A DNA stretch of 50,564 bases from Oscillospiraceae bacterium (GTDB taxonomy: Bacteria; Bacillota; Clostridia; Oscillospirales; CAG-272), in the NCBI GenBank assembly GCA_015063525.1, contig SVTZ01000002.1, positions 1 to 50,564 of the forward strand, written 5' to 3'. Positions 5,222-20,293 of this stretch are shown here, in pieces. Made by a program: the position numbers and the translations under genes. Within the stretch, counting starts at the first letter, position 1. The number at the start of each line of letters is the position of its first letter. Under the pieces are notes generated by a model. That model searched no databases. It was not told where the DNA came from and saw only the letters and a program-made list of their open reading frames with translations.

Positions 5222-5872
5222 ATGAGTATCAATAAAACCTACGCCGTGTTCGGTCTTGGACGATACGGTCTTGCCGCTGCAAGGGAGCTTATAAATAGTG
5301 GTGTAGAGATTATCGCTGTTGATATGGACGAGAGCAAGGTAAACGCGCACACATCAGAGCTTCCTGTATGTAAGTGCGCTGACGTGACAGATCCCGAGGT
5401 TATTCGTCAGCTTGGCATCGGAGGTGTGGACGTGGTTATAATCTCAATGGCAAACAATCTTGAAGCAAGTGTTATGGCGGTTACTCTATGTAAAGAAGCC
5501 GGAGTCAAAACCGTCATTGCAAAGTGCGCAAACGAAATGCATAGAAAGATACTCTCTCGCGTTGGTGCTGACGTTGTGGTTTTTCCCGAGAATGAGTCGG
5601 GAATTCGCCTTGCGAAAAATCTGTTAAGCTCTGGATTTGCAGATATGATTACTCTTTCAAAGGAATTTTCTATGATCGAGCTTGACGTTAGGCCCGAATG
5701 GGTAGGTAAAAGCTTGCTTGAGCTTCATTTGCGTAAAAAATACGCCATCAACGTGGTCGCAATCAAACGCGGAGACAGGCTTACGGTCAATATAAATCCT
5801 GAGGAAAAGCTGACTGCCGATAGCTCACTTATTGTTATTGCCAATCCTCAAAAGCTTTCAAAACTTAGATAG
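5222..5872 (+). CDS. ktrA: TrkA/KtrA-family potassium uptake regulatory subunit (RCK N and C domains)
   Basis: N-terminal Rossmann motif VFGLGRYG, about 216 aa, immediately downstream of ktrB; an RBS (GAGG) precedes the ATG. Confidence 0.85.
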   Translation: MSINKTYAVFGLGRYGLAAARELINSGVEIIAVDMDESKVNAHTSELPVCKCADVTDPEVIRQLGIGGVDVVIISMANNLEASVMAVTLCKEAGVKTVIAKCANEMHRKILSRVGADVVVFPENESGIRLAKNLLSSGFADMITLSKEFSMIELDVRPEWVGKSLLELHLRKKYAINVVAIKRGDRLTVNINPEEKLTADSSLIVIANPQKLSKLR

Positions 5873-5956
5873 ATTAGCAAAAATTTACTTTTTGGTCACA
5901 TTTGCTCATTAAAAAAGTGGTAAAATATGTATTAAAGTAAATGAGCGAGGCAAAAA

Positions 5957-7435
5957 ATGTCTAAAGTACTTATTATCGGCGGCGGTGTTGCGGGGCTTTC
6001 CGCAGGAATTTACGCCCGCCTCCACGGTCACGAGGCCGTTGTTTGCGAGAAGCATACTATTCCAGGTGGAAATCTCACCGGATGGAGTAGGGGAGAATAC
6101 CATATCGATAACTGTATTCATTGGCTTACCGGCACAAACCCCTCCTCGGCGCTTTATGAGATGTGGGTTGAGTTGGGCGCTCTCGGCAATGGAATAGGTG
6201 TCGTTCAAGGTAACAGTCTTATCACCTGCGAGAGAGACGGAAAATCGATGTCTCTTTATTGCTCGCTGGATAAGATAAAGGCTGAGATGCTTGCACTATC
6301 GCCCGAGGATGAGCGCGAGATAAAAAGATTTATAAACGCCATAGAGCTGGTTATGGCACTTGACCATATCGCGGGAGAGGACTGCAACGAGGGTATTACT
6401 CTACCCAGACTTCTTCGGGGTATCGGCCCTGCGCTTAAGTATTATAAGCTTACTACAGGACAGCTTGCAAAGCGCTTTAAAAGTCCTGCCCTCCAATGTT
6501 TCATTACAGGATTCTGGGGCCATGACTTCGGTGCATACGCTCTTCTCTTCGTGTTTGCAACCTATTGCGGACGCAATGGCGCTCTGCCGAAGGGCGGCTC
6601 TTTGAAGATGGCCGAGAGAATGACTGAGAGGTTTAAATCCCTCGGTGGTGCTCTTAAGCTGAAAAAAGAAGCTGTGCGTGTAAATCTTGATGGAAATCGC
6701 GCCGTATCAGTTGTTTTTGCCGACGGAAGCATCGAAAGTGCGGATTATATTGTTATGACTACCGACGCAGCAATCACTTTTGGCAAGATGCTCGATAGAC
6801 CCATGCCGGAGAAACTGAAAAAGCTTTACGATGACCCCCGAATGCGCCGTTTCTCTGCATATCATACCGCCTTTGCCTGCGATCTTGCCGAGCTTCCCTT
6901 TGAGGGAGACTTGATCTTTGATGTGCCTAAGGAGTATGTTGATATTCTTCATACTGAGCAGGTAATTCTCCGCGAGTTTTCCCACGAACCATCATACGCT
7001 CCCGAGGGAAAAAATATTTTGCAGACTATGACCTTCTGCTTCGAGAAGGACTGTAATGAGTTTATCAGGCTTCGCAGAGAGGATAAGGAGGCGTATAAGG
7101 CGAAGAAAGAACAGCTTTCATCTATCCTTCAGATGCTTATAGAGGAGCATTGTCCCTCGCTTCGCGGTAGGCTTACTATTATCGACGTCTGGACACCGGC
7201 AAGCTATGAGCGATTCATAGGCTCACAGGTGGGCTCATTTATGAGCTTTGCTCTTCCCGAGAGCTATATTCCTGTCTGCCTTGACGGATCTGATACCGGC
7301 GTTGATAATCTGCTTTTGGCAACCCAATGGCAGCAGTCGCCGGGAGGACTGCCTATTGCGGCCGAGTGCGGAAAGAAAGCGATAGAGACAATTTCCGAGA
7401 TTGAAAAGAAAAAACAAAGGTCTAAAAAATCATAA
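5957..7435 (+). CDS. NAD(P)/FAD-dependent oxidoreductase, phytoene-desaturase (CrtI)-like family
   Basis: N-terminal dinucleotide-binding motif VLIIGGGVAGLSAG..E(x)n..GG and about 490 aa length, typical of amine-oxidase/CrtI-like flavoproteins. Substrate not inferable. Confidence 0.7.
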   Translation: MSKVLIIGGGVAGLSAGIYARLHGHEAVVCEKHTIPGGNLTGWSRGEYHIDNCIHWLTGTNPSSALYEMWVELGALGNGIGVVQGNSLITCERDGKSMSLYCSLDKIKAEMLALSPEDEREIKRFINAIELVMALDHIAGEDCNEGITLPRLLRGIGPALKYYKLTTGQLAKRFKSPALQCFITGFWGHDFGAYALLFVFATYCGRNGALPKGGSLKMAERMTERFKSLGGALKLKKEAVRVNLDGNRAVSVVFADGSIESADYIVMTTDAAITFGKMLDRPMPEKLKKLYDDPRMRRFSAYHTAFACDLAELPFEGDLIFDVPKEYVDILHTEQVILREFSHEPSYAPEGKNILQTMTFCFEKDCNEFIRLRREDKEAYKAKKEQLSSILQMLIEEHCPSLRGRLTIIDVWTPASYERFIGSQVGSFMSFALPESYIPVCLDGSDTGVDNLLLATQWQQSPGGLPIAAECGKKAIETISEIEKKKQRSKKS

Positions 7436-8481: not shown

Positions 8482-11283
8482 ATGAAACGCGATAACAAAA
8501 ATATTCTCAGTGTTATTCTGCTAATATCTCTTCTCGTATATGCTTTGCCGTTTACGGCGGTTGGCGCATCGGCATCTTCGGGATCGGGTATTATTGATGC
8601 TTCAGGCTGGCTAGAGTCGGCTTATGCGGAGTGGGCCCCTGTTAGCGGAGCTGACGGCTACAATGCTTACGTTGCGGGCAGCGACTCGTCCGTTTGGACA
8701 AAGATCGACAGTGCCCTTATCCGAGATTATTCGAGCTACTACCGCGTTGACGCTCTTGGTCTTAAGGCCGGTAGCTATCAGATCAAAATAATTCCCACAT
8801 CCGGCGGCGCAGAGCTTTCCGACAAGGCGCTTACCACCGAGACGCTTGTCGTTTCTCCTTACGATCGCTCTGGCTATGCACACTTTAATTACACCGACGG
8901 TGTCGGCGCGTATAACGACGACGGAACCTTGAAGGAAGGCGCAATAATCCTCTATGTTACCGAGGATAACAAGAATACTGTTTCGGTTACCTCCAAGGAC
9001 GGAACTACCGTTACCGGTATAGGAAATATTCTTAACTCGGTAGGCCAGGACGTTGGCGGAGGCAAGACCTCTAAGGGGGGCATCGCAAACTCTAATTCGG
9101 ATATTATCCGCAAGCTTGCTAATGACGGAACTCCTCTTGTGGTCCGTATTATCGGCAACGTTACCGCGCCCGACGGACTTACCGCCTTCAACTCTGTTAA
9201 TTACGGTGGATCTACCGGCGACAACGGCTATATGGCGAGAATGTCCGGCGGTAAGAATATCACTATCGAGGGCGTCGGCTTTGACGCGGCTATCAACGGC
9301 TGGGGTCTGCACTTTATCTGCCAGACCGCAGATTATAAGAACGGAATAGGCAAGAGCTTTGAGGTCCGTAATATTGCCTTCAGGAACGTTCCCGAGGATT
9401 GCGTTGGTATGGAGGGTCAGCAGGAGGGCTCTACCCTTACTGCACCCGTTGAGCGTTGTTGGATCCACCATTGCTCTTTCTACGCCCCCAAGATAGCAAA
9501 TCCTGCGGAGAGTGATAAAGATGGCGGTGACGGCGCTTGCGACTTCAAGCGAGGTCAGTATTTCACTAACGCATATTGCCTTTACGAGGGATATCACAAG
9601 ACAAATCTTATTGGCTCCGGAGATGATTCGCTGCAGTATCACATAACCTATCACCATAACTATTGGAGAAACTGCGAGTCTCGCGGACCTCTTGCACGTC
9701 AGGCGAATATTCATATGTATAACAACATCTTTGAGGGGCAAACCTCTTATTGTATGAGCATTCGCGCAAATGCGTATATATTCTCTGAATACAATATGTT
9801 CTTTAATTCAAAGAAGGTAAGTGAAAATAGAAATGGCGGTGTTTGCAAGAGCTATAACAACAGCTTCGTTTCATGCTCCGGGGCAGACGCCTCTGATATT
9901 ATCTACGTTGCTGACAGAGATGCTACCGTTTCATCGTCTTGCAAGTACGCAAACTTTGATACCAATTCCGCGCTCAGCTATATTCCCTCCGGAGATTACG
10001 TTCTCCAGGAGAGTATCTCCGAGATGAAGGCTGTCGTTATGGCCGAAGCCGGCACTCAAAAGGAGAATATTGTCACTCCCGATGAGGTAAACACCTCGGT
10101 TATTCCTGCAGCACTGTATCCCACCGCGGCAGTCGTTCTTGACTATTCCAAAAATCTTAACAAGAGCTATATCTCCTCTGCCGGCACATACGACAATATT
10201 GTTTTCAGCGTTTCTAAGTTCTTGGGTGATTACATAAGCCTTGGCGGTAATTCAACTCCTTGCAATATCGTGTTCTATGCAGATACCTCAGTTAATGTTA
10301 CGGTTACTCAGTATAGCGACAGCGCAAATGACGTGATTCTCTGTAGCGCTGTTGGCGAGTGCATTATGGTCGGCGGCGGAACAGCGGAAAATTTGCCATC
10401 GGGTTATTACTTTATCCAATCGAATAGCTATGACGTGGGTGAGGGCAAATATAAAGAGGCCAAGATCTCCGGCTTGACTATTACTGCCGTTGATCCTAAT
10501 GCTTCTACCAATCCCATTCCCACGCCTCCCTCTGTGACAGATCCCGATAACGGCGGTAATGCCGGTGGCGGTTCGACAATTTTGCCGGCAGGCGCATATA
10601 TGCACAGCTTTACCGAAAACGGTCTTACCGATCCTTCCGGATTCTTCAGCTTCTTCGATGCTAATCTTTCCGATTCGAAGGGAACGGTTGAATATAACGG
10701 TCTAACTCTTGATGTTTGCCTTAAGATCGAGAGCAAAACCAACATAAGCCTTACTGCTCCTGAAAGAGGAACTCTCCTTCTCGTCTTTGGCGGCTCGACC
10801 AATGCATCCGGCAAGCAGATTAAGATCGATGGCACGTCCACCGATATTGATTCCACCCAGATTCTTTCGGTAAGCGTTGAGGCGGGAGTCCACACTGTTA
10901 CAAAGGATGATTCTATCTTCCTCTACTATATCGCATACTTCTCCGAGTCTCAGGAAGAGCATACTCATGATTACTTCGAGGAGGAAATTGTTGCGGCAAC
11001 CTGCACTGAGGCAGGACTTCACACATTCGTTTGTGCGTGCGGTGACAGCTACACTGAGGAGATCGCTGCAAAGGGGCACGACTTCGAGGATGGTTTCTGC
11101 GTTGATTGCGGAATAAATGATCCCGACGGCGGCGAGAACGGCGAGGATGATCCCATATCTCCCGATGAAGGCGAAACAGAAATCGAAGCTCCCGACGAGC
11201 CCGAGGAAGAGCTTAACTTCTTTGAGCGAATTTGGAAGGCGATCGTAGATTTCTTCAAGAAACTTTTCGGAATAAAAGATTAA
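8482..11283 (+). CDS. Secreted multidomain pectate lyase (PL1-type parallel beta-helix) with C-terminal Cys/His module, acidic linker and amphipathic tail
   Basis: Signal peptide (..ALPFTAVGASA). PL1 signature blocks WIHHCSF, DGGDGACDFKRG, KTNLIGSGDD, ITYHHNYWRNCESRGPLARQANIHMYNN. GGAGG RBS. Confidence 0.75.
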   Translation: MKRDNKNILSVILLISLLVYALPFTAVGASASSGSGIIDASGWLESAYAEWAPVSGADGYNAYVAGSDSSVWTKIDSALIRDYSSYYRVDALGLKAGSYQIKIIPTSGGAELSDKALTTETLVVSPYDRSGYAHFNYTDGVGAYNDDGTLKEGAIILYVTEDNKNTVSVTSKDGTTVTGIGNILNSVGQDVGGGKTSKGGIANSNSDIIRKLANDGTPLVVRIIGNVTAPDGLTAFNSVNYGGSTGDNGYMARMSGGKNITIEGVGFDAAINGWGLHFICQTADYKNGIGKSFEVRNIAFRNVPEDCVGMEGQQEGSTLTAPVERCWIHHCSFYAPKIANPAESDKDGGDGACDFKRGQYFTNAYCLYEGYHKTNLIGSGDDSLQYHITYHHNYWRNCESRGPLARQANIHMYNNIFEGQTSYCMSIRANAYIFSEYNMFFNSKKVSENRNGGVCKSYNNSFVSCSGADASDIIYVADRDATVSSSCKYANFDTNSALSYIPSGDYVLQESISEMKAVVMAEAGTQKENIVTPDEVNTSVIPAALYPTAAVVLDYSKNLNKSYISSAGTYDNIVFSVSKFLGDYISLGGNSTPCNIVFYADTSVNVTVTQYSDSANDVILCSAVGECIMVGGGTAENLPSGYYFIQSNSYDVGEGKYKEAKISGLTITAVDPNASTNPIPTPPSVTDPDNGGNAGGGSTILPAGAYMHSFTENGLTDPSGFFSFFDANLSDSKGTVEYNGLTLDVCLKIESKTNISLTAPERGTLLLVFGGSTNASGKQIKIDGTSTDIDSTQILSVSVEAGVHTVTKDDSIFLYYIAYFSESQEEHTHDYFEEEIVAATCTEAGLHTFVCACGDSYTEEIAAKGHDFEDGFCVDCGINDPDGGENGEDDPISPDEGETEIEAPDEPEEELNFFERIWKAIVDFFKKLFGIKD

Positions 11284-11293
11284 ATAATATTTA

Positions 11294-11324
11294 GCGGCAG
11301 GTGAAAACCTGCCGCGTTCTTTTG
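11294..11324 (+). terminator. Rho-independent terminator of the pectate lyase gene
   Basis: gcggcagg / cctgccgc 8-bp stem, loop tgaaaa, followed by gttctttt. Confidence 0.7.
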
Positions 11325-11421
11325 CTATAAGCGCTTTGTGACCTTGTCACGGAAAGTCTCCCTTTATTTTGCTATAATGTAGTCAGAAAAAACAAAAACA
11401 CAAAATGAAAAGGAGAAAAAT

Positions 11422-11730
11422 ATGTCAGCATTAAGACTTAATAAAGAAAACTTTGATAAGGCAAGAAAAAATGAGGGAATAGCGCTTCTTGATTTCTATG
11501 CAGAATGGTGCGGCCCATGCCGTATGGTACTTCCCATAGTTGATGAGATCGCTGAGGAAAGATCAGACCTTATGGTCGCGAAGATAAACGTGGAGGAAAG
11601 TCCCGAGCTTGCCCGTGAGTTTGGCGTGCTCAGCATTCCGACTCTCATAGTTATGAAAAACGGCGAAATAATAAACCGCGTAAGCGGAGCGAGGAGCAAG
11701 GAAAAAATCCTTGAAATGCTGGTCGTGTAA
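11422..11730 (+). CDS. trxA: Thioredoxin
   Basis: 102 aa with the WCGPC active site and thioredoxin fold motifs (SIPTLIVMKNGE). AGGAG RBS. A TGcTATAAT extended -10 lies at 11370-11378. Confidence 0.9.
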   Translation: MSALRLNKENFDKARKNEGIALLDFYAEWCGPCRMVLPIVDEIAEERSDLMVAKINVEESPELAREFGVLSIPTLIVMKNGEIINRVSGARSKEKILEMLVV

Positions 11731-11748
11731 GTTAAAAGGACAATTATT

Positions 11749-11775
11749 GTAGGGGCGAGCGATGCTCGCCCCTAC
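11749..11775. repeat. GC-rich palindromic (REP-like) element, intact copy; likely also serves as the trxA terminator
   Basis: gtaggggcgagc-gat-gctcgcccctac, a perfect 12-bp stem followed by gatttt. Two decayed copies of the same left arm occur at 41561-41582 and 41663-41685. Confidence 0.6.
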
Positions 11776-11886
11776 GATTTTGAAGCTCAAGAGAGTTATT
11801 TAGACAAATATTACCAAAGAATGAGTAAAATGTATCAAAAGTCCTCGAAAAATAAAGAAATATTTAGTAATTTTTAAATAAATGTA

Positions 11887-11915
11887 TTGACATTACTTTA
11901 TTTAAATGGTATAAT
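11887..11915 (+). promoter_or_regulatory. Perfect-consensus sigma-A promoter of the 12022-16466 operon
   Basis: TTGACA (11887-11892), exactly 17 nt, TATAAT (11910-11915), within an AT-rich region; about 100-nt leader. Confidence 0.65.
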
Positions 11916-12021
11916 TAGCCTGATAAAAAATGTTAATTTTTCTTAAAATTTTACATTTTTCACGGCTTTTGCTCCAAAATATGGAATAAAAGCACGACAA
12001 ATTTGAAAGGACTAAATTAAA

Positions 12022-13611
12022 ATGAATGCAAAAATTCGTATTTTAAGTCTCCTTGTAGCGGCAGTTATGATCTTCGGCTGCCTTCCCATGACCGCTTTTG
12101 CGACCGGTGATGAGGCAGAGGCGTTGCTTCAATCTGCAGAACACTTTGATAAAGATTGTGACTATGCCTGCGATAATTGCGGCAATGCTTTAGCTCTTAC
12201 TTTTGATGACTATGTAACCGATGGTGAAGCCGGAGAAGAGAGATATTCTTCTAATGGTTATGTTAGCTTTACAAACATTGCAGCAACGAGTGGTACTAGC
12301 TACTCGGATGCAAGAGACTATGTATTAAAGAGTACTGCTCGTCCCGAAGGTCATACCAAGGGTACATGGCTCTATCTTGGAGCAAATCCTGCTGATGCAA
12401 ATGATACTGTTCTTGTTTCAAACTCTGTAAGCGCCAGTAGTATGACTGATGATGCAATATCCGACGTTAATTTCACTCCTATTGTTCAAGATGAAAAAGG
12501 AGAATTGGTAGTTCTTGAGTTCGATTACCGTATTGACGGTGGTGCGGCGAGCAAAAATACATTCAAATTCGTGTATAATCATGAAGATGACACTGTTACC
12601 AGAGCTAACGGAACATATACATCTGCAGCAGATGGAGTATCGTATATCAGACTTGTTGCTGATGAAAAAGGTGTTTACAAGTTCACCTATAAAACTTGGG
12701 TAAGAATTAGACTTGTATGTAATGATGAAACACAAAATATTTACACTTATCTTTCGACAGATGGTGGAAATACATACGTACAGTGTAGCACAATCGGAGA
12801 CTACAAAACCAATAGCCCGATAACTTCTCTGGGTTTAACATACATTGGCTATGGTGTAAATTCCACTCAGTATTATGATAACATCGTATGTGTAAGAACA
12901 TCTCAGGAATATCTTGATCTTCCAGAGAGTGAATATGCTTGTGAAGAAATTTGCTCCTTCGCAGACGCTATTGCAAATGCTTCCGAAGGTGACGCTGTTT
13001 CTCTTCTTGCAGACGTGGATGCTTCCGGTTATGTTTCCGTAAAGGGTGGCGTTACCCTTGACCTTAACGGTCACAACCTTACTGCTGACGGTATTGCTCT
13101 TTACGGCGATGCTAACGTTATTGACAGCGCGGAGACTAAAGGCTCTCTTGTGGTTCCTGAGGGTAATTTCGCAGCGGCTGCTACAGCAACCGGTGCACTG
13201 CCTGTGTGGAATGGCTCGGCTTACGTTCTTGCTGATGTAACTGCTAACAATCAGCTTACGGACAATGGCGATGGTAGCTTTAAGGTGCTCTTCAAGCCCG
13301 GTTTTACCGGTATTGATGCTGCAACATTGTTCGCTGACGGCGCTGCTGATAACGGACTTCACTGGGCAGTTGAGATTGACTGCATTAAGGAAGGCGCGGT
13401 TGTACAGACCATCCGCTTTGATGTAGCTAATGAAGGTGAAGCGGGCTCCGGAGCTATTGGCAGTGTATACGGAACAGAGAATGCTATAAGCCTTACCGTA
13501 GGCGGCGCAACCAACTTCGAGAGCTATAGTATTAGAATGGTTATTGAGGCCGATTGCGGCATTACTTATTCCGAGGTAATGTGTGTTTATCCCGTTGTAT
13601 CGGCGGAGTAA
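12022..13611 (+). CDS. Secreted protein of unknown function with an N-terminal D-x-x-C-D-N-C-G Cys module; first gene of the RiPP-like operon
   Basis: Signal peptide (..CLPMTAFA|TGDE), then HFDKDCDYACDNCGNAL. No recognisable catalytic motif. AAAGGA RBS. Stops 14 nt before the small-peptide ORF, with no terminator between them. Confidence 0.55.
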   Translation: MNAKIRILSLLVAAVMIFGCLPMTAFATGDEAEALLQSAEHFDKDCDYACDNCGNALALTFDDYVTDGEAGEERYSSNGYVSFTNIAATSGTSYSDARDYVLKSTARPEGHTKGTWLYLGANPADANDTVLVSNSVSASSMTDDAISDVNFTPIVQDEKGELVVLEFDYRIDGGAASKNTFKFVYNHEDDTVTRANGTYTSAADGVSYIRLVADEKGVYKFTYKTWVRIRLVCNDETQNIYTYLSTDGGNTYVQCSTIGDYKTNSPITSLGLTYIGYGVNSTQYYDNIVCVRTSQEYLDLPESEYACEEICSFADAIANASEGDAVSLLADVDASGYVSVKGGVTLDLNGHNLTADGIALYGDANVIDSAETKGSLVVPEGNFAAAATATGALPVWNGSAYVLADVTANNQLTDNGDGSFKVLFKPGFTGIDAATLFADGAADNGLHWAVEIDCIKEGAVVQTIRFDVANEGEAGSGAIGSVYGTENAISLTVGGATNFESYSIRMVIEADCGITYSEVMCVYPVVSAE

Positions 13612-13625
13612 TTAAGGAGGAAAAA

Positions 13626-13754
13626 ATGAAGAAAGAATATATTAAGCCCGAAGCAGAGTATATCAGCTTCTACTCCGAGGAAGAAATTACCGCTGATGTT
13701 GACACAGGTCTCTCTGGCTCCTTTGGTGAGGAACCGGCTCCCGGAGACTGGTGA
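13626..13754 (+). CDS. 42-aa acidic peptide; candidate RiPP precursor (MKKEYIKPEAEYISFYSEEEITADVDTGLSGSFGEEPAPGDW)
   Basis: The ATG is preceded by AAGGAGG with a 6-nt spacer. Its TGA stop overlaps the next gene's ATG (TGATG). It has a Y-x-x-P motif near the N-terminus. The ORF-track entry 13554-13754 includes an unlikely N-terminal extension. Confidence 0.6.
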   Translation: MKKEYIKPEAEYISFYSEEEITADVDTGLSGSFGEEPAPGDW

Positions 13755-14470
13755 TGCTCTGCAAGATAGCAGACCTATTCGTTGAAATATCCGAGGCGGG
13801 GGGCATTGCCCCCCGCTGTGTGAATTATATGGCGGATTGCGCGGTCGATGTCGATATTATAATTGATAAAGAACTCTACAAGCCCGAAAGATGGAAGGGC
13901 CTCTCCTACGAGCAGGCTGTTTATATGGACTCGGGCTTGATATTTTATGCCGAGCTTCTTAAGTTCGGCGGTATGATGTTACATGCATCGGCGGTGGAGC
14001 TTGATGGCAAGGCATATCTTTTCTCCGGTCCCTCGGGTATGGGAAAATCCACACACGCCCGTCTTTGGCAGCAGAGCTTTCCCGGGGCGAGGGTGTTTAA
14101 TGATGATAAGCCCGCCCTTCGAAAGCTTGACGGTGTATGGTACGCCTACGGTACTCCTTGGTGCGGTAAGGACGGCATTAATATTAATTTAAAGGTACCG
14201 CTTGAAGGTATCTGCTTCTTAAGACGTGGCGAGAAGAACGAAATTCGCCGCCTTTCGCCATTAGAGGCCGCGTCTGCAATTATAAGCCAGACCTTAAGGC
14301 GGTTTTCAAGCACGAAGGGCCTTGCGCTTATGACCGACACGGTGGACAGCCTTACTCGTGATATTCCGGTGTTCGAGCTTCGCTGCCGACCTGATACCGA
14401 GGCGGCTATTATGAGCTACAAGGCGTTAAACAAAAGCAGCAGAGAGGTAAAAAATGAAGATAAAAAGTAA
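13754..14470 (+). CDS. HPr-kinase-C-terminal-domain-like (HprK-related) putative peptide serine kinase
   Basis: LHASAVELDGKAYLFSGPSGMGKSTHARLW...FNDDKP matches the HprK C-domain P-loop (G-x-S-G-x-GKS) and the downstream DD motif. ATG at 13754 (or GTG at 13751) is translationally coupled to the peptide ORF. Confidence 0.7.
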   Translation: MLCKIADLFVEISEAGGIAPRCVNYMADCAVDVDIIIDKELYKPERWKGLSYEQAVYMDSGLIFYAELLKFGGMMLHASAVELDGKAYLFSGPSGMGKSTHARLWQQSFPGARVFNDDKPALRKLDGVWYAYGTPWCGKDGININLKVPLEGICFLRRGEKNEIRRLSPLEAASAIISQTLRRFSSTKGLALMTDTVDSLTRDIPVFELRCRPDTEAAIMSYKALNKSSREVKNEDKK

Positions 14471-14720
14471 TTTCACTCTTAGAAATATAGCGGACACTTG
14501 GGTGGCGCTTCCCCTTGGCGAGGCGGCGGTTGACTTCACCGGTATGCTGACTCTTAACGAGTCGGGCGTTATGCTCTGGCGCTTACTTGAGGGCGGCTCA
14601 ACCCGTGAGGAGATGGCCGACGCGCTTCTTAAAGAGTACGAGGTTTCATACAATGAGGCGCTTGCTGACGTTGATGCGTTTATCGCAAGGCTGAATGACG
14701 CAGGCTGTATAGATGCCTAA
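14454..14720 (+). CDS. PqqD-family protein (RiPP recognition element / peptide chaperone)
   Basis: 88 aa. The pattern ..FTLRNIADTWVALPL...LTLNESGVMLWRLLEGGSTREEMADALLKEYEVSYNEALADVDAFIARL is the classic PqqD/RRE winged-helix pattern. Overlaps the preceding gene by 17 nt; GAGG RBS. Confidence 0.85.
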   Translation: MKIKSNFTLRNIADTWVALPLGEAAVDFTGMLTLNESGVMLWRLLEGGSTREEMADALLKEYEVSYNEALADVDAFIARLNDAGCIDA

Positions 14721-14728
14721 TCGTTCAG

Positions 14729-14753
14729 GAGTTCGGCAGGCGCCGAATTCTTT
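14729..14753 (+). other. Intra-operon hairpin followed by TTT (possible partial terminator or processing site)
   Basis: gagttcggc / gccgaattc 9-bp stem (one G-U pair), loop aggc, then ttt. Lies between the PqqD and peptidase genes. Confidence 0.35.
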
Positions 14754-14780
14754 GACTAAAAAATAGGAGAGGTAGCTTTT

Positions 14781-15248
14781 ATGAATAAGAGAGAATCGGT
14801 TTTTGTAAATATGTCCTCTCTTGCCTCTGTTATCGAGGAGAAGATCTCCGACGGCGGATCGGTCGAGCTTTCTATAAGAGGGGTCAGTATGCGTCCGCTT
14901 CTGCGAGAGGGAAAGGACAGCGTTGTTCTCTCGCCTCTTATGGGGAGGTTAAAAAAAGGCGATATTGCCCTTTTTCGAAGGAATAACGGCGCATATGTGC
15001 TTCATCGCGTCGCAAAGGTAGCTGACAGCAGATACAGCTTTGTCGGAGATAATCAGTACTTCCTTGAGCCCGTCATCGACGCTCAGATCATTGCCGTTGT
15101 CAGCGCGATCAGACGTGACGGCAGGTTGTTTGAATGCGGGAATTTTGCCTATCGCGTCTACGCATTCCTTTGGCAGACCTCGCGGCCGCTTCGTTTTCTT
15201 TTATTCCGCATTCTAAGAAAGCTAAAGAAAATTTTAAAAATCGCATAA
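14781..15248 (+). CDS. S24/S26-family serine peptidase, SipW/archaeal-type Ser-His variant, no N-terminal TM anchor
   Basis: GVSMRPLL (nucleophile Ser box), GDIALF and YVLHRV (His in place of the usual Lys of K-R-V) resemble ER/SipW-type signal peptidase boxes. No hydrophobic N-terminus. GGAGAGG RBS. Confidence 0.65.
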   Translation: MNKRESVFVNMSSLASVIEEKISDGGSVELSIRGVSMRPLLREGKDSVVLSPLMGRLKKGDIALFRRNNGAYVLHRVAKVADSRYSFVGDNQYFLEPVIDAQIIAVVSAIRRDGRLFECGNFAYRVYAFLWQTSRPLRFLLFRILRKLKKILKIA

Positions 15249-15281
15249 TTCCGATAAAAACAAAAAAGGAGAACGTCTGCC

Positions 15282-16466
15282 TTGGAAAAGAAGGAAATAT
15301 CACCCATATGCCTTGATATGATATATCTTGCCGCCTGCTCGTTTCACGGTAGGCTTCCCGAGCGAGCGCGTATTGAGGAAATGGACCTTCATGCTGTCTA
15401 TAAAATGGCAAAACGCCATTCTATGCAATCTATAGTTTACATTCTTGTATCAAAATGCGTGAAGGAATACGGCGGGGAGATTATCGACACAGAGCTTCTT
15501 TTGCGCTGGAAGCAGGATCATCACGCAACCCTCGCCCGTCTTGTCAGCTTTGATATTGAGCGCGAGCAGCTGCTTGATTTCCTTGATAAGAATGGCATTT
15601 GGTATCTCTGCCTTAAGGGTATTCTGCTTCAGCATTATTATCCCGCACTTGGTATGCGTCAGATGACCGATAACGATATTCTCGTTGACCGGGCAGGGTG
15701 TAGGAAAATTAGGGAGTATATGACCGAGCGCGGCTTTGAGGTCTATTCCTACGGCACGCACTGCCACGATACCTATATTAAGGGCGGCGTTGCGTTTGAG
15801 ATACACCGCACCTTAGCCGAGGACGGCGGGAAAACGAAGGATGCTTTCTCCTATTACGAGAACGTTAAGGACAAACTCCTGCCCGGTAAAAGAGCCGCCG
15901 AGCTTCAATTTTGCGACGAGGATTTTTATATTTATTATATCTTCCACGCCTACAAGCATTATTCCATCGCCGGTTGCGGAGTACGCACGCTGATGGATAT
16001 TTATGCCTTTCTGTCGAAAAAGGGCGATGGCCTTGATAAGGAATACCTGAACGCCGAGCTTTCCGCCTTGGGTCTTACCGAATACGAGAGGCGGTCGAGA
16101 GAGCTTGCGTTTGCGCTCTTTTCAGCCGATGCGACAGAGCAGTCAGCCGATATTCTTGCTTTAGATGATGAGCTTACCCAAATGCTTAACTACTATCTTC
16201 ACTCAGGTACCTTCGGCACGAAAAATCAGCAGATCGAAAACTCTGTTTCCGAAATATCGCGCGGTGGAGATGTGACCGTATTTACAAAGCTTCTATATCT
16301 TATAAGGCGTGTTTTTCCGGGTATGGATTACTACAGAAACTCCTACCCGAGGGCAAGCAAATTTCTCGTTACCATTCCCTTTTTATGGCTTATAAGGATT
16401 TTCCGCGGAATAGGGAAGGGAAAGAGCGTTGCAAAAGAGGTTGAACATTTAAAGGAAATAAAATAA
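15282..16466 (+). CDS. Nucleotidyltransferase-family protein (NTP_transf_5 / uncharacterised nucleotidyltransferase type)
   Basis: The core LCLKGILLQHYYPALGMRQMTDNDILVD...GFE.......HDTY...FEIH matches the PF14907-type pattern (KG..l...Yp....R...D.D.LV). TTG start at 15282 is 10 nt after AAGGAG; an alternative in-frame ATG lies at 15318. Confidence 0.7.
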   Translation: MEKKEISPICLDMIYLAACSFHGRLPERARIEEMDLHAVYKMAKRHSMQSIVYILVSKCVKEYGGEIIDTELLLRWKQDHHATLARLVSFDIEREQLLDFLDKNGIWYLCLKGILLQHYYPALGMRQMTDNDILVDRAGCRKIREYMTERGFEVYSYGTHCHDTYIKGGVAFEIHRTLAEDGGKTKDAFSYYENVKDKLLPGKRAAELQFCDEDFYIYYIFHAYKHYSIAGCGVRTLMDIYAFLSKKGDGLDKEYLNAELSALGLTEYERRSRELAFALFSADATEQSADILALDDELTQMLNYYLHSGTFGTKNQQIENSVSEISRGGDVTVFTKLLYLIRRVFPGMDYYRNSYPRASKFLVTIPFLWLIRIFRGIGKGKSVAKEVEHLKEIK

Positions 16467-16491
16467 GGGACGCGAGAAAATCGTGTCCCTT
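16465..16491 (+). terminator. Terminator hairpin ending the 12022-16466 operon
   Basis: aagggacgcga / tcgtgtccctt 11-bp stem (one G-U pair), loop gaaaa, overlapping the stop codon. Weak T-tract (ttatt). Confidence 0.55.
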
Positions 16492-16513
16492 ATTAACATA
16501 AAGTTAGAAAAGA

Positions 16514-16537
16514 GGGCAGGCTTTGAGAAGCCCGCCC
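16514..16537 (-). terminator. Terminator of the malQ-pullulanase transcript
   Basis: gggcaggctt / aagcccgccc stem (one mismatch), followed on the minus strand by tctcttttct. Confidence 0.55.
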
Positions 16538-16544
16538 TTAAATA

Positions 16545-18725
16545 TTATTTACCAATAACGTTGACGTTAACTAGAACGATCGCGCTGTAAGCAGGAATGG
16601 TCACATTCGTGCAAGCACCGTCAAGGAGATTGGTTGCTCCTGCCTGAGTTCCGTCGCAAACGAGATAGTACTCGCCGTCCGCGGTATATTCATACGTCTC
16701 CTCGGTGGGGTTAAGGACGATAACAGCCTTTCCGCCCATATGGTTGTCAATAACAACAGATGCTCTCGCGGTGTTTCCAATTGTAGAACCGGTTATAGCG
16801 GTATTGTTGTCTGTGAAGATGTCAAATGACTTTCTCATCTCAATAAGACCCTTGTAGTACTGAAGCATATTGTACTCATTAGTACCGTCGCTCAGCACGT
16901 TCCAATTGATGTTGTTAACCTCGTCGCTCGATTTATAGCTGTTTCGGTCGTAGCAGCCGTTGCCGTCGGGCTTGGTGCGGAGCATTTCCTCGCCTGCCTG
17001 AAAGAATACTATACCCTTGGAGATCATAAGGATGGTGGCACCAAGTCGGTTCATCGCCATTCTGTCCTCAACCGAGTTGGTTTCGTTGGAGAGAATAAGC
17101 TTATCCCAAAGGGTGTTGTTATCGTGAGCAGACATATAGTTAACTACCATAGCATCCTTTACGGTCCAGCTTGCGCCCGTGCCTGCGCCTCCTCTGATTC
17201 CGAAGAGAACGGAAGGGAATGCGCCTGAGCCGATTCCGCTGATGTAGCCCTTTGATGTATCGTTGAATACGCTGCCCTTAAGACCGTCACGTATCGCGTC
17301 GTTAAATACTGCTATGCCGCCGATAGCACTCTCGAAGGGAATGATATTCTTGATCTGGCTTTGGTTAGCCATTGCGCTTCCGTCTATCGTAGCGCCCATA
17401 GTCCAACCTTCGCCGTAGATTAGTGCCTGGGGATTTATGGTGTGAACTGCGGTCTCAACCTCCTGCATAGTATGGAGATCGTGGAGACCCATAAGGTCGA
17501 AGCGTAGTCCGTCAAGGTGGTATTCTTTCATCCAGTAGCCGGTGGAGTCAACCATAAACTTACCGTACATATATCTCTCGGATGCGGTGTCGTTGCCACA
17601 GCCGGATGCGGAGGATTTTGCCCCCGATGCGTTGTATCTGTAGTAATAGTAAGGAACGATCTTGTTTAAGCCGGAGTTAGCATCGTAGGTGTGGTTATAA
17701 ACAACGTCCATAACAACACCGATTCCAGCAGCGTGAAGAGCCTGAACCATTCTTTTGTATTCTCTGATTCTCACTTCACCGTTATATGGATCGGTGGAGT
17801 AGCTTCCATCGGGAACATTGTAGTTTTTGGGATCGTACCCCCAGTTGAACTGGCTGTCGGGATTTGCTTCATCTACGGTTGCGTAATCACAAACAGGAAG
17901 AAGTTGAACGTGGGTGATACCAAGCTTAACGAGATAATCAACGCCAACGCTCTCTCCGTGCTCGTTTATAAGACCTCTTTCGGTGAAGGAAAGGTACTTT
18001 CCCTTATACTTGGAGAGAGAGATCTTGTTGGAGAAGTCTCTTATGTGAACCTCCCAGATGATAGCATCGGAGTAGCTTTTGATTTCGGTGGAGAAGTCTG
18101 CGTCCTCTTCCCATCCCTCGGGATTGGTGAGAGAAAGGTCGACTACCATTCCGCGGTTTCCGTTAAGGCCTGCAGCCTTTGCATAAGGGTCAACAGCCTC
18201 CTGAGTGCCGACAGAGGTGGTAACGGTGTAGGTGTAATATGTGCCGTGTCCGCAGTTCGCGCTGTGGGACCAGACGCCCTTGCCGCCCTTTTTCATTTCA
18301 ACCTGCTCGTAAGCAGTGCCATTGTGGCCCGACTCGAAGAGATTAAGCACAACCTTGGATGCAGTGGGTGCCCATACCTTGAAGGTGGTCTTGTCGCCTT
18401 TAATTATAGCACCCAGATCGTCGCCGTTATAGTTGTAGGTGTTCTTGAATTCCGCAGTGTCAAAGATCTTCGTGGGGACGACGTTCTTCTCTCCATAGCC
18501 CTCGAGAAAAACACGGTAGGTCTTAGAGACATCAAGAGTTTCCTTGATCTCAATACTGCCGGTTATATCCTCTTTACCCATATTGGTTATGTTAAGAATT
18601 GTCAGTTCCTTTTCACCCTCGTATACCTTTATCTGGCTATACTTGGTAATCGCAGCCTTGGGAGTAATTGTGTATTCGATGTGATGGAAATCTATCATTC
18701 CCGCCAGGGAGAATTTCTTTGTCAT
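16545..18725 (-). CDS. pulA: Type I pullulanase (GH13, with N-terminal CBM41/CBM48-like modules)
   Basis: Conserved GH13/pullulanase regions: YNWGYDPKNY, GIGVVMDVVYNHT, LDGLRFDLMG, IYGEGW, YMSAHDN. Confidence 0.9.
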   Translation of the reverse strand: MTKKFSLAGMIDFHHIEYTITPKAAITKYSQIKVYEGEKELTILNITNMGKEDITGSIEIKETLDVSKTYRVFLEGYGEKNVVPTKIFDTAEFKNTYNYNGDDLGAIIKGDKTTFKVWAPTASKVVLNLFESGHNGTAYEQVEMKKGGKGVWSHSANCGHGTYYTYTVTTSVGTQEAVDPYAKAAGLNGNRGMVVDLSLTNPEGWEEDADFSTEIKSYSDAIIWEVHIRDFSNKISLSKYKGKYLSFTERGLINEHGESVGVDYLVKLGITHVQLLPVCDYATVDEANPDSQFNWGYDPKNYNVPDGSYSTDPYNGEVRIREYKRMVQALHAAGIGVVMDVVYNHTYDANSGLNKIVPYYYYRYNASGAKSSASGCGNDTASERYMYGKFMVDSTGYWMKEYHLDGLRFDLMGLHDLHTMQEVETAVHTINPQALIYGEGWTMGATIDGSAMANQSQIKNIIPFESAIGGIAVFNDAIRDGLKGSVFNDTSKGYISGIGSGAFPSVLFGIRGGAGTGASWTVKDAMVVNYMSAHDNNTLWDKLILSNETNSVEDRMAMNRLGATILMISKGIVFFQAGEEMLRTKPDGNGCYDRNSYKSSDEVNNINWNVLSDGTNEYNMLQYYKGLIEMRKSFDIFTDNNTAITGSTIGNTARASVVIDNHMGGKAVIVLNPTEETYEYTADGEYYLVCDGTQAGATNLLDGACTNVTIPAYSAIVLVNVNVIGK

Positions 18726-18781: not shown

Positions 18782-20293
18782 TTATTTAACCGCGCGTCCG
18801 TTTCGCTCGGTCATTTCCTTGATCTTTCTCGTGAGAGAGGGGGTTCTGTATCTCTTGGACAGACGCCAGTTCCAGTTGCCCTCCGCAACTGCGGGAGTAT
18901 TGATTCTACCCTCATCGTTGGTAAGCTCAAGATAGTCCTGTATAGGAATTACCGCAAGGCCTGCACGGCTTGACATAGCAAGTTCAATCAGGTCGTAGGT
19001 GCGGCTCTGCCCGGGGATGGAGGGACACTCCTTCCTGAAGCGTCGCTTGGCTTCGCCTGAGAGGTTTTTCGACCAGGTTTTGGTGCAGTCGGAATCGTGA
19101 GAACCGGAGTAAACTACACAATTGGAGTGAGGATACATTCTGGGAAGATACTCCGAGTCGTCATCAAAGAAAGCAAACTGAAGTATCTTCATTCCGGGAA
19201 AACCGCAGTCGTCAAGAAGCTCGCGCACGTCGGAGGTGATAAAGCCAAGGTCTTCAGCGATGATCCTCGCCTTGGGGAAGTTTTTCGCTATCGTCCTGAA
19301 CAGGGAAATGCCCGGAGCAGGATCCCACTTGCCGTTTCTTGCGGTTGTTTCGCCGTAAGGAATATTATAGTATCCAGCAAAGCCTCTGAAATGATCTATG
19401 CGGAGAATGTCGTATAGCTTAAAGCTCTCTTGCACTCTCCTTTGCCACCAGGAGAAGCCGTCGGTCTCCATAAATGCCCAGTCGTAAATGGGGTTACCCC
19501 AAAGCTGACCGTCGGGAGAGAAGCCGTCGGGAGGACAGCCGGCAACAACTGTGGGATTGAAATTCTCGTCAAGCAGGAACTGCTCGGGAGCTTGCCATAC
19601 ATCCATACTGTCGTGGGCAACGTAGATAGGCATATCTCCGATTACTACTATACCCTTGGAATGGGCATATGAAAGGAGAGCCTGCCACTGATTGCTGAAT
19701 TCGTACTGTATCCAGATCCAGAAGCCGCACTCGGCTTCAAAATCGCCTCTCTTGGCTCTCGCCTGCTTTACGTCCTTGTGCTCGTCTGCCCAGGAGGTCC
19801 ATACTTCGTAGCTATAATGAACCTTCAGCGCCATAAAGAGCGAGTAGTCGTTAAGCCAATGTGAGTTCTTTCTGACGTAAGCTTTATATTTAGGGGACGT
19901 ATCACTCTTTTTGTCAATAAATCTTTCGTATGCCTTTCGAAGCACTACGTATCTTGTGTTAAATAGCCAACCATAATCGACCCTTAAGGTGTCGTGTATG
20001 TTTTCTTTAAGCTCATCCTTTGTAAGAAGCCCTTCCTTGGCAAGAATTTCAAGGTCGATAAAGTAGGGATTGCCTGCGATCGACGCGGGTGATTGATATG
20101 GACTGTCACCGTAGGAAGTAGGGTTGAGAGGTAAAACCTGCCAACACTTCGTCCTTGTATCAAATAGAAAATCCACGAAATCGTATGCGCTTTTACCGAA
20201 GGAGCCGATTCCGTATGGAGAGGGCAGGGAACTTATAGGCATTAAAATTCCGCTTTTGTGTCGGAAGCTGAAATTAGTTTGTAGGTTATTCAT
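18782..20293 (-). CDS. malQ: 4-alpha-glucanotransferase (amylomaltase, GH77)
   Basis: GH77 motifs: SPYGIGSFG, QVLPLNPT..DSPYQS, GDMPIYV, LRIDHFRGF, IIAEDLG, SGSHD. Confidence 0.9.
   Translation of the reverse strand: MNNLQTNFSFRHKSGILMPISSLPSPYGIGSFGKSAYDFVDFLFDTRTKCWQVLPLNPTSYGDSPYQSPASIAGNPYFIDLEILAKEGLLTKDELKENIHDTLRVDYGWLFNTRYVVLRKAYERFIDKKSDTSPKYKAYVRKNSHWLNDYSLFMALKVHYSYEVWTSWADEHKDVKQARAKRGDFEAECGFWIWIQYEFSNQWQALLSYAHSKGIVVIGDMPIYVAHDSMDVWQAPEQFLLDENFNPTVVAGCPPDGFSPDGQLWGNPIYDWAFMETDGFSWWQRRVQESFKLYDILRIDHFRGFAGYYNIPYGETTARNGKWDPAPGISLFRTIAKNFPKARIIAEDLGFITSDVRELLDDCGFPGMKILQFAFFDDDSEYLPRMYPHSNCVVYSGSHDSDCTKTWSKNLSGEAKRRFRKECPSIPGQSRTYDLIELAMSSRAGLAVIPIQDYLELTNDEGRINTPAVAEGNWNWRLSKRYRTPSLTRKIKEMTERNGRAVK

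Follow-up and report, generated by a model that had tools for sequence, protein, structure and literature searches.

Linear polyphosphorylated peptides (LPPs) have been described from Bacilli by Popov et al. (Nat Commun, May 2026; PMC13381572), where they are encoded by cyclase-free relatives of paeninodin-type lasso clusters, often in capsule loci. The lppA-K-B-S-D-N cluster of Paenibacillus alginolyticus specifies a precursor, an HprK kinase, a discrete RRE (RiPP recognition element; RiPPs are peptides made on ribosomes and modified after translation), a SipW-like type I signal peptidase (SpI), an MsbA-type pump and an NTP transferase. LppK places up to four phosphates on core Ser3, and LppS (S29, H68, D93) cuts after T-1, requires LppB and prefers the phosphorylated precursor. 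Structure 9x8z shows how LppB grips the YxxP motif, whose Pro kink and Tyr are held by N33 and D70; the motif belongs to the precursor consensus YxxPxVLxHQxIxFETxxS (PMC13381572). Here we analyse a 50,564-nucleotide (nt) stretch of an Oscillospiraceae bacterium (contig SVTZ01000002.1, positions 1-50,564; hereafter the window) and, within it, an open reading frame (ORF) of 42 amino acids (aa) at 13626-13754 on the plus strand. The ORF is a real, conserved small gene that annotation had missed. It probably encodes an LppA-type precursor of a linear, kinase-modified ribosomal peptide that would be trimmed by a SipW-like peptidase, and the locus, judged by sequence comparison, is most likely a gut-Clostridia variant of LPP clusters that lies outside the characterised cluster.

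Translation of 13626-13754 gives MKKEYIKPEAEYISFYSEEEITADVDTGLSGSFGEEPAPGDW. A preliminary description, made from the letters of the window, had counted 11 acidic and 3 basic residues and no Cys, and had singled out Y5-x-x-P8, T27 and G28-L-S30-G-S32-F-G-E35-E36; the composition and all of these residues are as described. The strong ribosome-binding site that it proposed is the Shine-Dalgarno sequence AAGGAGG at 13614-13620, 5 nt before the ATG, and the ORF track lists the gene, as had been remarked, only as a 66-aa TTG-extended version (13554-13754). Translational coupling to the HprK-like gene is likewise borne out by a TGATG junction, in which the TGA stop of the peptide gene (13752-13754) overlaps both a GTG at 13751 and an in-frame ATG at 13754 of the kinase gene. 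The ATG is the likely kinase start, because homologues begin MLCKIADL. The peptide ORF opens the biosynthetic part of an operon with the order precursor, kinase, RRE, peptidase and NTP_transf_5 protein, all on the plus strand.

A kinase-based genome scan gave 80 related loci (36-65% identity), with hosts among gut and rumen Oscillospiraceae, Faecousia, Lachnospiraceae and Flavonifractor, and most of these loci have an equivalent small ORF upstream that ends at the start of the kinase homologue. About 90 further copies of the peptide, called as proteins but all unnamed and none with a Pfam domain, were added by a profile search of 5.8 billion proteins. Alignment of 57 peptides gave the leader consensus MKKxYxKPExExIxFxxxExI[A/T/M], with the Tyr of YxxP present in 56 of 57 and the Pro in every one, and 137 distinct relatives share the leader MKKxYxKPExExIxFxxxExI. 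Sites resembling a Shine-Dalgarno sequence precede 54 of 56 homologous peptide genes. The gap from peptide to kinase start is at most 18 nt in 50 of the 56, with an overlap in 15, and measures 87-230 nt in 6. Codon-position entropy of the peptide genes is 1.70 at the third position and 1.24 and 0.97 at the others, and single-base codon differences are synonymous and nonsynonymous in a ratio of 5504:4111 in frame, as compared with 2059:7881 in the +1 frame. This conservation and coding-type codon variation agree with the earlier claim that a genuine small gene had been overlooked. The peptide itself has no PADLOC, Pfam or NCBIfam match.

The leader spans about residues 1-22 (or 1-27) and is followed by an acidic core rich in Gly, Asp and Ser. 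In the 137 peptides the post-leader region contains 18% Gly, 14% Asp, 8% Ser, 8% Glu and no Cys, the median net charge of the cores is -4, and every core has a Ser or Thr (Ser in 134). At the C-terminal position 41% have an aromatic residue and a single peptide has Ser; in the window peptide it is Trp. When the small ORFs were aligned, YxxP was conserved, as the preliminary description had expected, and its GLSGSFG/EE segment proved semi-conserved only: a related motif, [STDE]-G-[STDE]-hydrophobic-G, occurs in 38 of 137 peptides versus 2.6 in shuffles, a count over related sequences and so not an independent test. SGS-F-G, as in the window, is its commonest form. Peptide genes are duplicated in L044 (491-598 and 5897-6004, each behind its own large-protein gene), and L074 has tandem, nearly identical copies at 5642-5761 and 5865-5984.

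The enzymes encoded downstream correspond to the LPP set. The kinase gene (13754-14470) specifies an HprK-like P-loop protein, the counterpart of LppK, PadeK and PsmK. Its NCBIfam matches to ScmC and HprK_rel_A are sub-threshold, and its homologues carry the Pfam domain ScmC (PF27840), of which we found no mention in the literature searched. H77, K98 (the GKST lysine of GPSGMGKST), D117 and D118 are invariant among the homologues; a His-Lys-Asp-Asp set is essential in lasso-peptide kinases (PMC9266682). An AlphaFold2 model of the kinase (predicted local distance difference test, pLDDT, 91.9) matches catalytic-domain structures of ATP-dependent phosphoenolpyruvate carboxykinase (ATP-PEPCK) and HprK/P with E about 1e-6, and a PDB search by sequence gave no match for the kinase or the NTP transferase. 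The kinase clusters at E <= 1e-5 numbered 2770.

The RRE gene (14454-14720) overlaps the kinase gene by 17 nt and encodes a discrete PqqD-family protein (PF05402, 1.4e-17), the LppB/B1 counterpart. Its nearest NCBIfam models are lasso PqqD chaperones, and its PDB sequence matches are TbiB1, LppB (9x8z_B) and TfuB1. In the alignment to 9x8z_B, N35 and D72 fall opposite LppB N33 and D70, and both residues are kept in the family consensus LN.sG ... A..Dv..F. The earlier proposal that the YxxP leader is read by this RRE is strengthened on both sides, by the family-wide conservation of the motif and by the retention of the residues that hold it in LppB. Papers on RRE-Finder made no mention of kinases or signal peptidases.

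The peptidase (14781-15248) is a SipW/archaeal-type, signal-peptidase-like (S24/S26-like) Ser/His(/Asp) enzyme, the LppS counterpart (sigpep_I_arch, 1.1e-7). The same model, which describes archaeal/ER-type signal peptidases, is matched by 31 of 38 family members, and G34, S36, M37, P39, H75, R76, G89 and D90 (GxSMxP, HR, GD) are invariant. Over 116 aa the protein shares 31% identity with LppS, which reaches 69.4 bits against the family profile, and the 39-residue spacing of S36 and H75 equals that of the catalytic S29 and H68 of LppS. PDB searches returned weak signal-peptidase matches only, even with a profile (E = 0.11), and a single-sequence AlphaFold model (pLDDT 46) was unusable; the assignment rests on sequence. 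Because a hydrophobic segment is lacking in 46 of 46 members, the peptidase should be cytoplasmic. A true secretory signal peptidase acting on the neighbouring secreted proteins was ruled out on the same ground. The last enzyme, an NTP_transf_5 nucleotidyltransferase-like protein (15282-16466; PF14907, 2e-42), is the LppN/PsmN counterpart; its conserved D130-x-D132 motif parallels D134/D136, which are needed for PsmN activity (PMC6993621).

Compared with the LPP clusters, the window operon has the order A-K-B-S-N, matching lppA-K-B-S-(D)-N, and is cyclase-free. It combines a YxxP leader, an HprK-like kinase, an RRE that keeps the equivalents of LppB N33/D70, an NTP transferase of LppN type and, adjoining the PqqD gene, an LppS homologue in which S36, H75 and D90 stand for S29, H68 and D93. 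Capsule genes and ABC exporters are frequent in the related loci, as in the published LPP clusters. The core also has the T(-1)/Ser(+3) geometry of LppA, as T27/G28-L29-S30. Other features set the two apart: hosts here are Clostridia and not Bacilli, residues Y+13 to Y+18 read EEEITA in the window and FETAQS in LppA, and the cores are short and acidic (median -4), whereas those of Bacilli are long, basic (+4) and rich in Gly and Asn. Nor does the published account of LPPs report the constant association with large secreted-protein genes that is treated below (PMC13381572).

Several observations weigh against the LPP assignment. Beyond YxxP, a hydrophobic residue at Y+5 and an acidic one at Y+14, the leader departs from the LPP consensus, and the family leader profile scores LppA at 3.9 bits or less. 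Ser falls within Y+17 to Y+19 in only 18 of 137 relatives, so that acceptor and cleavage sites may differ from those of LppA. No MsbA-like export pump (LppD) is encoded in the window operon (12022-16466). For both RRE and peptidase, Clostridial members of clusters 4, 9 and 20 in the published sequence similarity network (SSN) are closer (34-45% identity) than cluster 1; those clusters were listed with "other RRE" and no precursor, and were left uncharacterised (PMC13381572). Kinase and RRE occur without a nearby peptide gene in 15 of 70 related loci. Conversely, most peptides recovered by a peptide-anchored metagenome scan (described below) have, among the matches listed, no enzymes of the kinase set on their contigs, and the enzymes may therefore not be the only or main partners of the peptide.

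By analogy with LPPs, the leader (MKKEYIKPEAEYISF...) would bind the discrete PqqD-type RRE as an added beta-strand through Y5 and P8, and the RRE would present the peptide to the HprK-like kinase for transfer of one or several phosphates onto a core Ser. The cytoplasmic SipW-like Ser/His peptidase would then remove the leader in an RRE-dependent reaction, best after phosphorylation, with cleavage predicted after T27 or T22. Further decoration of the phosphate by the NTP_transf_5 protein may follow, comparable to the hexoses that PsmN attaches in pseudomycoidin. The product would have no macrolactam and would be a linear peptide, short and strongly acidic, that carries phosphate. For RRE binding, polyphosphorylation and SpI cleavage this scheme relies on what has been published for homologues; which residue is the acceptor, where cleavage occurs and all downstream biology we infer.

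The preliminary description had named Ser30 and Ser32 as candidate acceptors and had remarked on Thr at -1. Its idea that the HprK-like kinase acts on Ser draws support from the homologous LPP system, in which this has been demonstrated (PMC13381572), and Thr at -1 agrees with LPP processing, in which LppS cuts after T-1 and LppK modifies core Ser3. Since T27/G28-L29-S30 matches the T(-1)/Ser(+3) arrangement of LppA, S30 would be the acceptor, with S32 as the alternative. The choice of residue stays a prediction, however, as this spacing is not fixed in the family.

In this branch the peptide gene nearly always stands immediately after a gene for a large secreted protein. In the window this is a 529-aa protein with a signal peptide (12022-13611, plus strand) and no Pfam match, whose stop lies 14 nt before the peptide ATG. 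A promoter scan found a sole strong promoter-like site 5′ of 12022, a sigma-70-type promoter with an extended -10 element at 11887-11915 on the plus strand (TTGACA-17-TATAAT with a TG extension, 12 of 12 hexamer matches), and none between the 529-aa gene and the peptide gene, which share it. Residues ~310-520 of the 529-aa protein match the C-termini of upstream proteins in about 50 loci: its C-terminal ~200 residues are the domain that ends proteins encoded directly 5′ of peptide genes, and a profile of this domain matches 52 of 64 upstream ORFs. The upstream proteins are often 1700-1950 aa or longer, with one of 7230 aa. Among 70 kinase loci with enough upstream DNA, 49 have both protein and peptide, 15 have neither, 2 have the protein only and 4 the peptide only (Fisher 6e-10, uncorrected for phylogeny). 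L044 has two successive units of large protein and peptide ahead of a single enzyme set. In L081 (9846-10000) the peptide and kinase genes, which overlap in the window, are separated by a strong GC hairpin ending in a T-run and then by a TTGACA-17-TATAAT promoter ahead of the kinase, so that precursor expression may go with that of the upstream protein and exceed that of the enzymes. Proteins with S-layer homology (SLH) domains and capsule genes are frequent neighbours. The pairing suggests, speculatively, that the product acts at the cell envelope with the large protein or the capsule.

The size of the upstream protein varies even among close relatives. L081, L082 and L083 agree in their kinase (P0024, identical in all three) and in the genes downstream, and their upstream proteins are >7230, 838 and 1081 aa long (gene end 9686); these greatly different lengths imply a surface-protein gene that is highly variable between strains.

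Metagenomes were scanned with a degenerate DNA pattern for ATGAARAARNNNTAYNNNAARCCNGARNNNGAR, giving at least 120 loci (L084-L203), with small ORFs for example at L135:4986-5150 and in L172 and L098. A homologous large protein is encoded 5′ of the peptide on the same strand in 80 of the at least 120 loci (median gap 33-41 nt), in a family built by single linkage whose members may be joined by common repeat domains. An HprK-like kinase is nearby in only 7, on contigs that are short and beyond whose ends enzymes could lie. Among the matches listed, the peptides show a coding signature, have L/I at Y+16 and A/G/S-S at Y+18 to Y+20, positions outside the pattern, carry an acidic tail (median -5) with an aromatic residue within the last six positions in 81 of 99, and match no NCBIfam model. 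The genes downstream of them are, among the same matches, mutually unrelated and include genes for glycoside hydrolases GH36 and GH53, a DUF4421 gene and a fimbrillin-like gene. Across the at least 120 loci, many upstream proteins end ...YNLxGQRVxxPxKGxYIVNGKKVxIK, resembling a sorting domain of the type IX secretion system (T9SS). Membership of that system is unsupported: among the matches listed, TIGR04183 was reached by 3 of 93 C-termini and PF18962 by 1, leaving a resemblance only. The upstream proteins thus differ in their ends, with the 529-aa-type domain of the window in Clostridia and the KGxYIVNGKKVxIK tail on Bacteroidota-like contigs among the matches listed.

These data bear on an explanation that is possible, though we doubt it: that the peptide is a dedicated companion of the upstream large secreted protein or of the capsule, serving in maturation, anchoring or regulation, with the enzymes as an optional module and a product that is not a classical secreted antimicrobial RiPP. 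The 14-nt junction and common promoter, the way in which presence of the peptide tracks the C-terminal-domain protein, the repeated units of L044, the terminator and separate kinase promoter of L081, the preponderance of large proteins over kinases in the metagenome loci and the SLH and capsule neighbours are all consistent with it. This explanation is compatible with that of a phosphorylated precursor, and the two do not exclude each other. The link to the large protein consists of gene adjacency, which could reflect hitch-hiking on a strongly expressed gene, and the short contigs and single-linkage family limit the metagenome counts. Broader still, and in our estimation rather unlikely, is the proposal that small acidic peptides with the MKKxYxKPExE... 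leader belong to one extensive superfamily that has escaped annotation and whose genes, in gut anaerobes of two phyla, directly follow those for large proteins that are secreted or lie at the surface. Under this proposal the peptide would be a surface-protein partner (envelope anchoring, maturation, regulation) and the LPP enzymes the activation route of Bacillota.

A far less probable explanation is a lasso precursor, a geometry that the preliminary description had seen in the Gly...Glu spacing; a cyclase with its gene in another part of the genome would link G28 to E35 or E36. The leader resembles that of paeninodin, firmicute lasso clusters have a kinase, a B1-like RRE and an NTP transferase as their accessory set, and the spacing is compatible with an 8- or 9-residue ring. 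The maturation enzymes of a lasso peptide, however, were not found. That no cyclase is present had been noted before, and agrees with our Pfam scan of the window ORFs, which included ten large ORFs outside the operon and gave no Asn-synthetase-type cyclase. No transglutaminase-like protein of B2 type occurs among the large window ORFs scanned. Around the kinases of the 80 related loci, within about 6 kb on either side, no cyclase family recurs, and no conserved neighbour family is of the B2 transglutaminase-like leader protease kind. For the 65 unclustered large ORFs of these loci, Asn_synthase is absent from the 10 families that match at least 2 ORFs and also from the singleton families within the best 25 of 75 families. 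The position after B1, where a lasso cluster has B2, is occupied by the S26-like, SpI-like peptidase, as in linear LPPs. In the peptide itself YxxP is present but Thr is not at -2 for a G28 start, and the Gly...Glu arrangement is not conserved across relatives; with cores of 18% Gly and 22% Asp+Glu, a Gly-then-acid spacing is expected by chance. The macrolactam geometry, as read from the sequences, is probably coincidental, and the lasso ring is rejected as an explanation.

That the ORF is a mere translational-coupling or leader device for kinase expression, with a functionless product, is scarcely credible: the TGATG overlap and the very short gaps in most loci would suit it, but the leader amino acids are under strong purifying selection, the C-terminal part is compositionally constrained across the family, 6 of 56 loci have gaps of 87-230 nt and L081 a terminator between peptide and kinase genes, and the peptide is widespread without the kinase.

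Taken together, these data argue for a phosphorylated, linear, LppA-type product and for a divergent LPP branch that is common in gut and rumen Oscillospiraceae and their relatives, with short, acidic precursors that are mostly missed by standard gene callers. They also provide a testable functional lead: genes for very large secreted proteins, often with SLH and capsule genes close by, are co-transcribed with the precursor gene, which follows them phylogenetically. If the peptide should prove to be a surface-protein partner, LPPs would gain a concrete biological function, and if the wider metagenome pairing holds, many "hypothetical" small ORFs behind surface-protein genes would be one family.

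When ORFs within about 6 kb on either side of the kinase were clustered in 81 loci, the recurrent families were the kinase (81 of 81), PqqD (74), the S26-like peptidase (46), an ABC exporter (ABC_membrane+ABC_tran, 23), NTP_transf_5 (17), CpsC/D-like proteins (16) and CpsB (6), together with a large secreted/SLH-like protein family. Most related loci (L001-L080) contain an extra gene for an SLH-domain protein with a signal peptide, in the RRE-peptidase or peptide-kinase interval (for example L070:7052-8014, L090:12773-13927), which is absent from the window. The most distant kinase and PqqD pairs (L079:6001-9239 and L080:1262-4506, 36-37% identity) have no recognisable peptide gene; CpsC/CpsD-like and CpsB genes lie directly downstream, and the large upstream protein ends a few bases before the kinase. 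Two separate kinase and RRE loci were found in each of the metagenome-assembled genomes JAZSMZ01 (L008, L037), JAZKXW01 (L025, L038), SVLT01 (L044, L058) and JAUNND01 (L065, L066). Most of these have their own large-protein gene and peptide; L025 does not, and L008, at a contig end, is undeterminable.

In the window, a GC-rich hairpin at 16513-16538 (11-bp stem with 7 GC pairs, no strand assigned) between the convergent NTP_transf_5 and pullulanase-like genes is likely the end of the operon; it was scored on the minus strand, and its stem is a near-perfect palindrome. The genes beyond it, on the minus strand, are pullulanase-like (16545-18725) and 4-alpha-glucanotransferase-like (18782-20293). 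Downstream, L081 shares its synteny with the window, namely a pullulanase-like gene, GH77 and two DHH genes, and in the orthologous loci L081-L083 a WapI-family gene (PF24716, 12802-13239) that has no window counterpart follows NTP_transf_5. Just upstream of the operon, the secreted product of 8482-11283 (933 aa) combines pectate lyase and CBM77 domains with a segment rich in Cys and an acidic tail at the C-terminus; a thioredoxin gene (11422-11730) comes next. No Rfam match was found in 11000-17000. A defence system was considered and rejected, as PADLOC gave zero matches.

Outside the LPPs, the closest described systems are the paeninodin and pseudomycoidin lasso clusters (C-A-K-B1-B2-(N)-D), with which the window shares the gene order A-K-B1, an HprK-like kinase bearing the His-Lys-Asp-Asp motif and an NTP_transf_5 enzyme. 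The likeness to paeninodin extends to the leader, MKKxYxKPxxE, which the family profile scores at 16.2 bits (2000 shuffles reached at most 6.3 bits), and to an acidic core (-6 in PadeA). The window differs in having no macrolactam synthetase and no B2 cysteine protease, and a serine peptidase instead. It also differs from paeninodin in the acceptor, which there is a conserved C-terminal Ser; with Trp at the end of the window peptide and Ser at the end of only 1 of 137 relatives, a C-terminal Ser cannot be the acceptor here.

A ScmC-family (PF27840) kinase paired with a PqqD-family protein is also found in the SynChlorMet and HprK-related kinase A/B systems (TIGR04249, TIGR04352, TIGR04355). 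The window proteins score well below the SynChlorMet cut-offs (ScmC 40 bits versus 125, ScmD 25 versus 100), and the two radical SAM/SPASM proteins of that cassette are absent from the window operon. Literature searches on ScmC, SynChlorMet and amphi-Trp returned unrelated acronyms only.

Finally, the peptidase shares the Ser/His signal-peptidase signature GxSMxP, HR, GDN with SipW of Bacillus subtilis and with SodX, the S26 enzyme of nickel superoxide dismutase (NiSOD) maturation. It lacks a membrane anchor and would act, by homology to LppS, on an RRE-presented peptide. In this it is like SodX, a soluble enzyme that trims an N-terminal propeptide.

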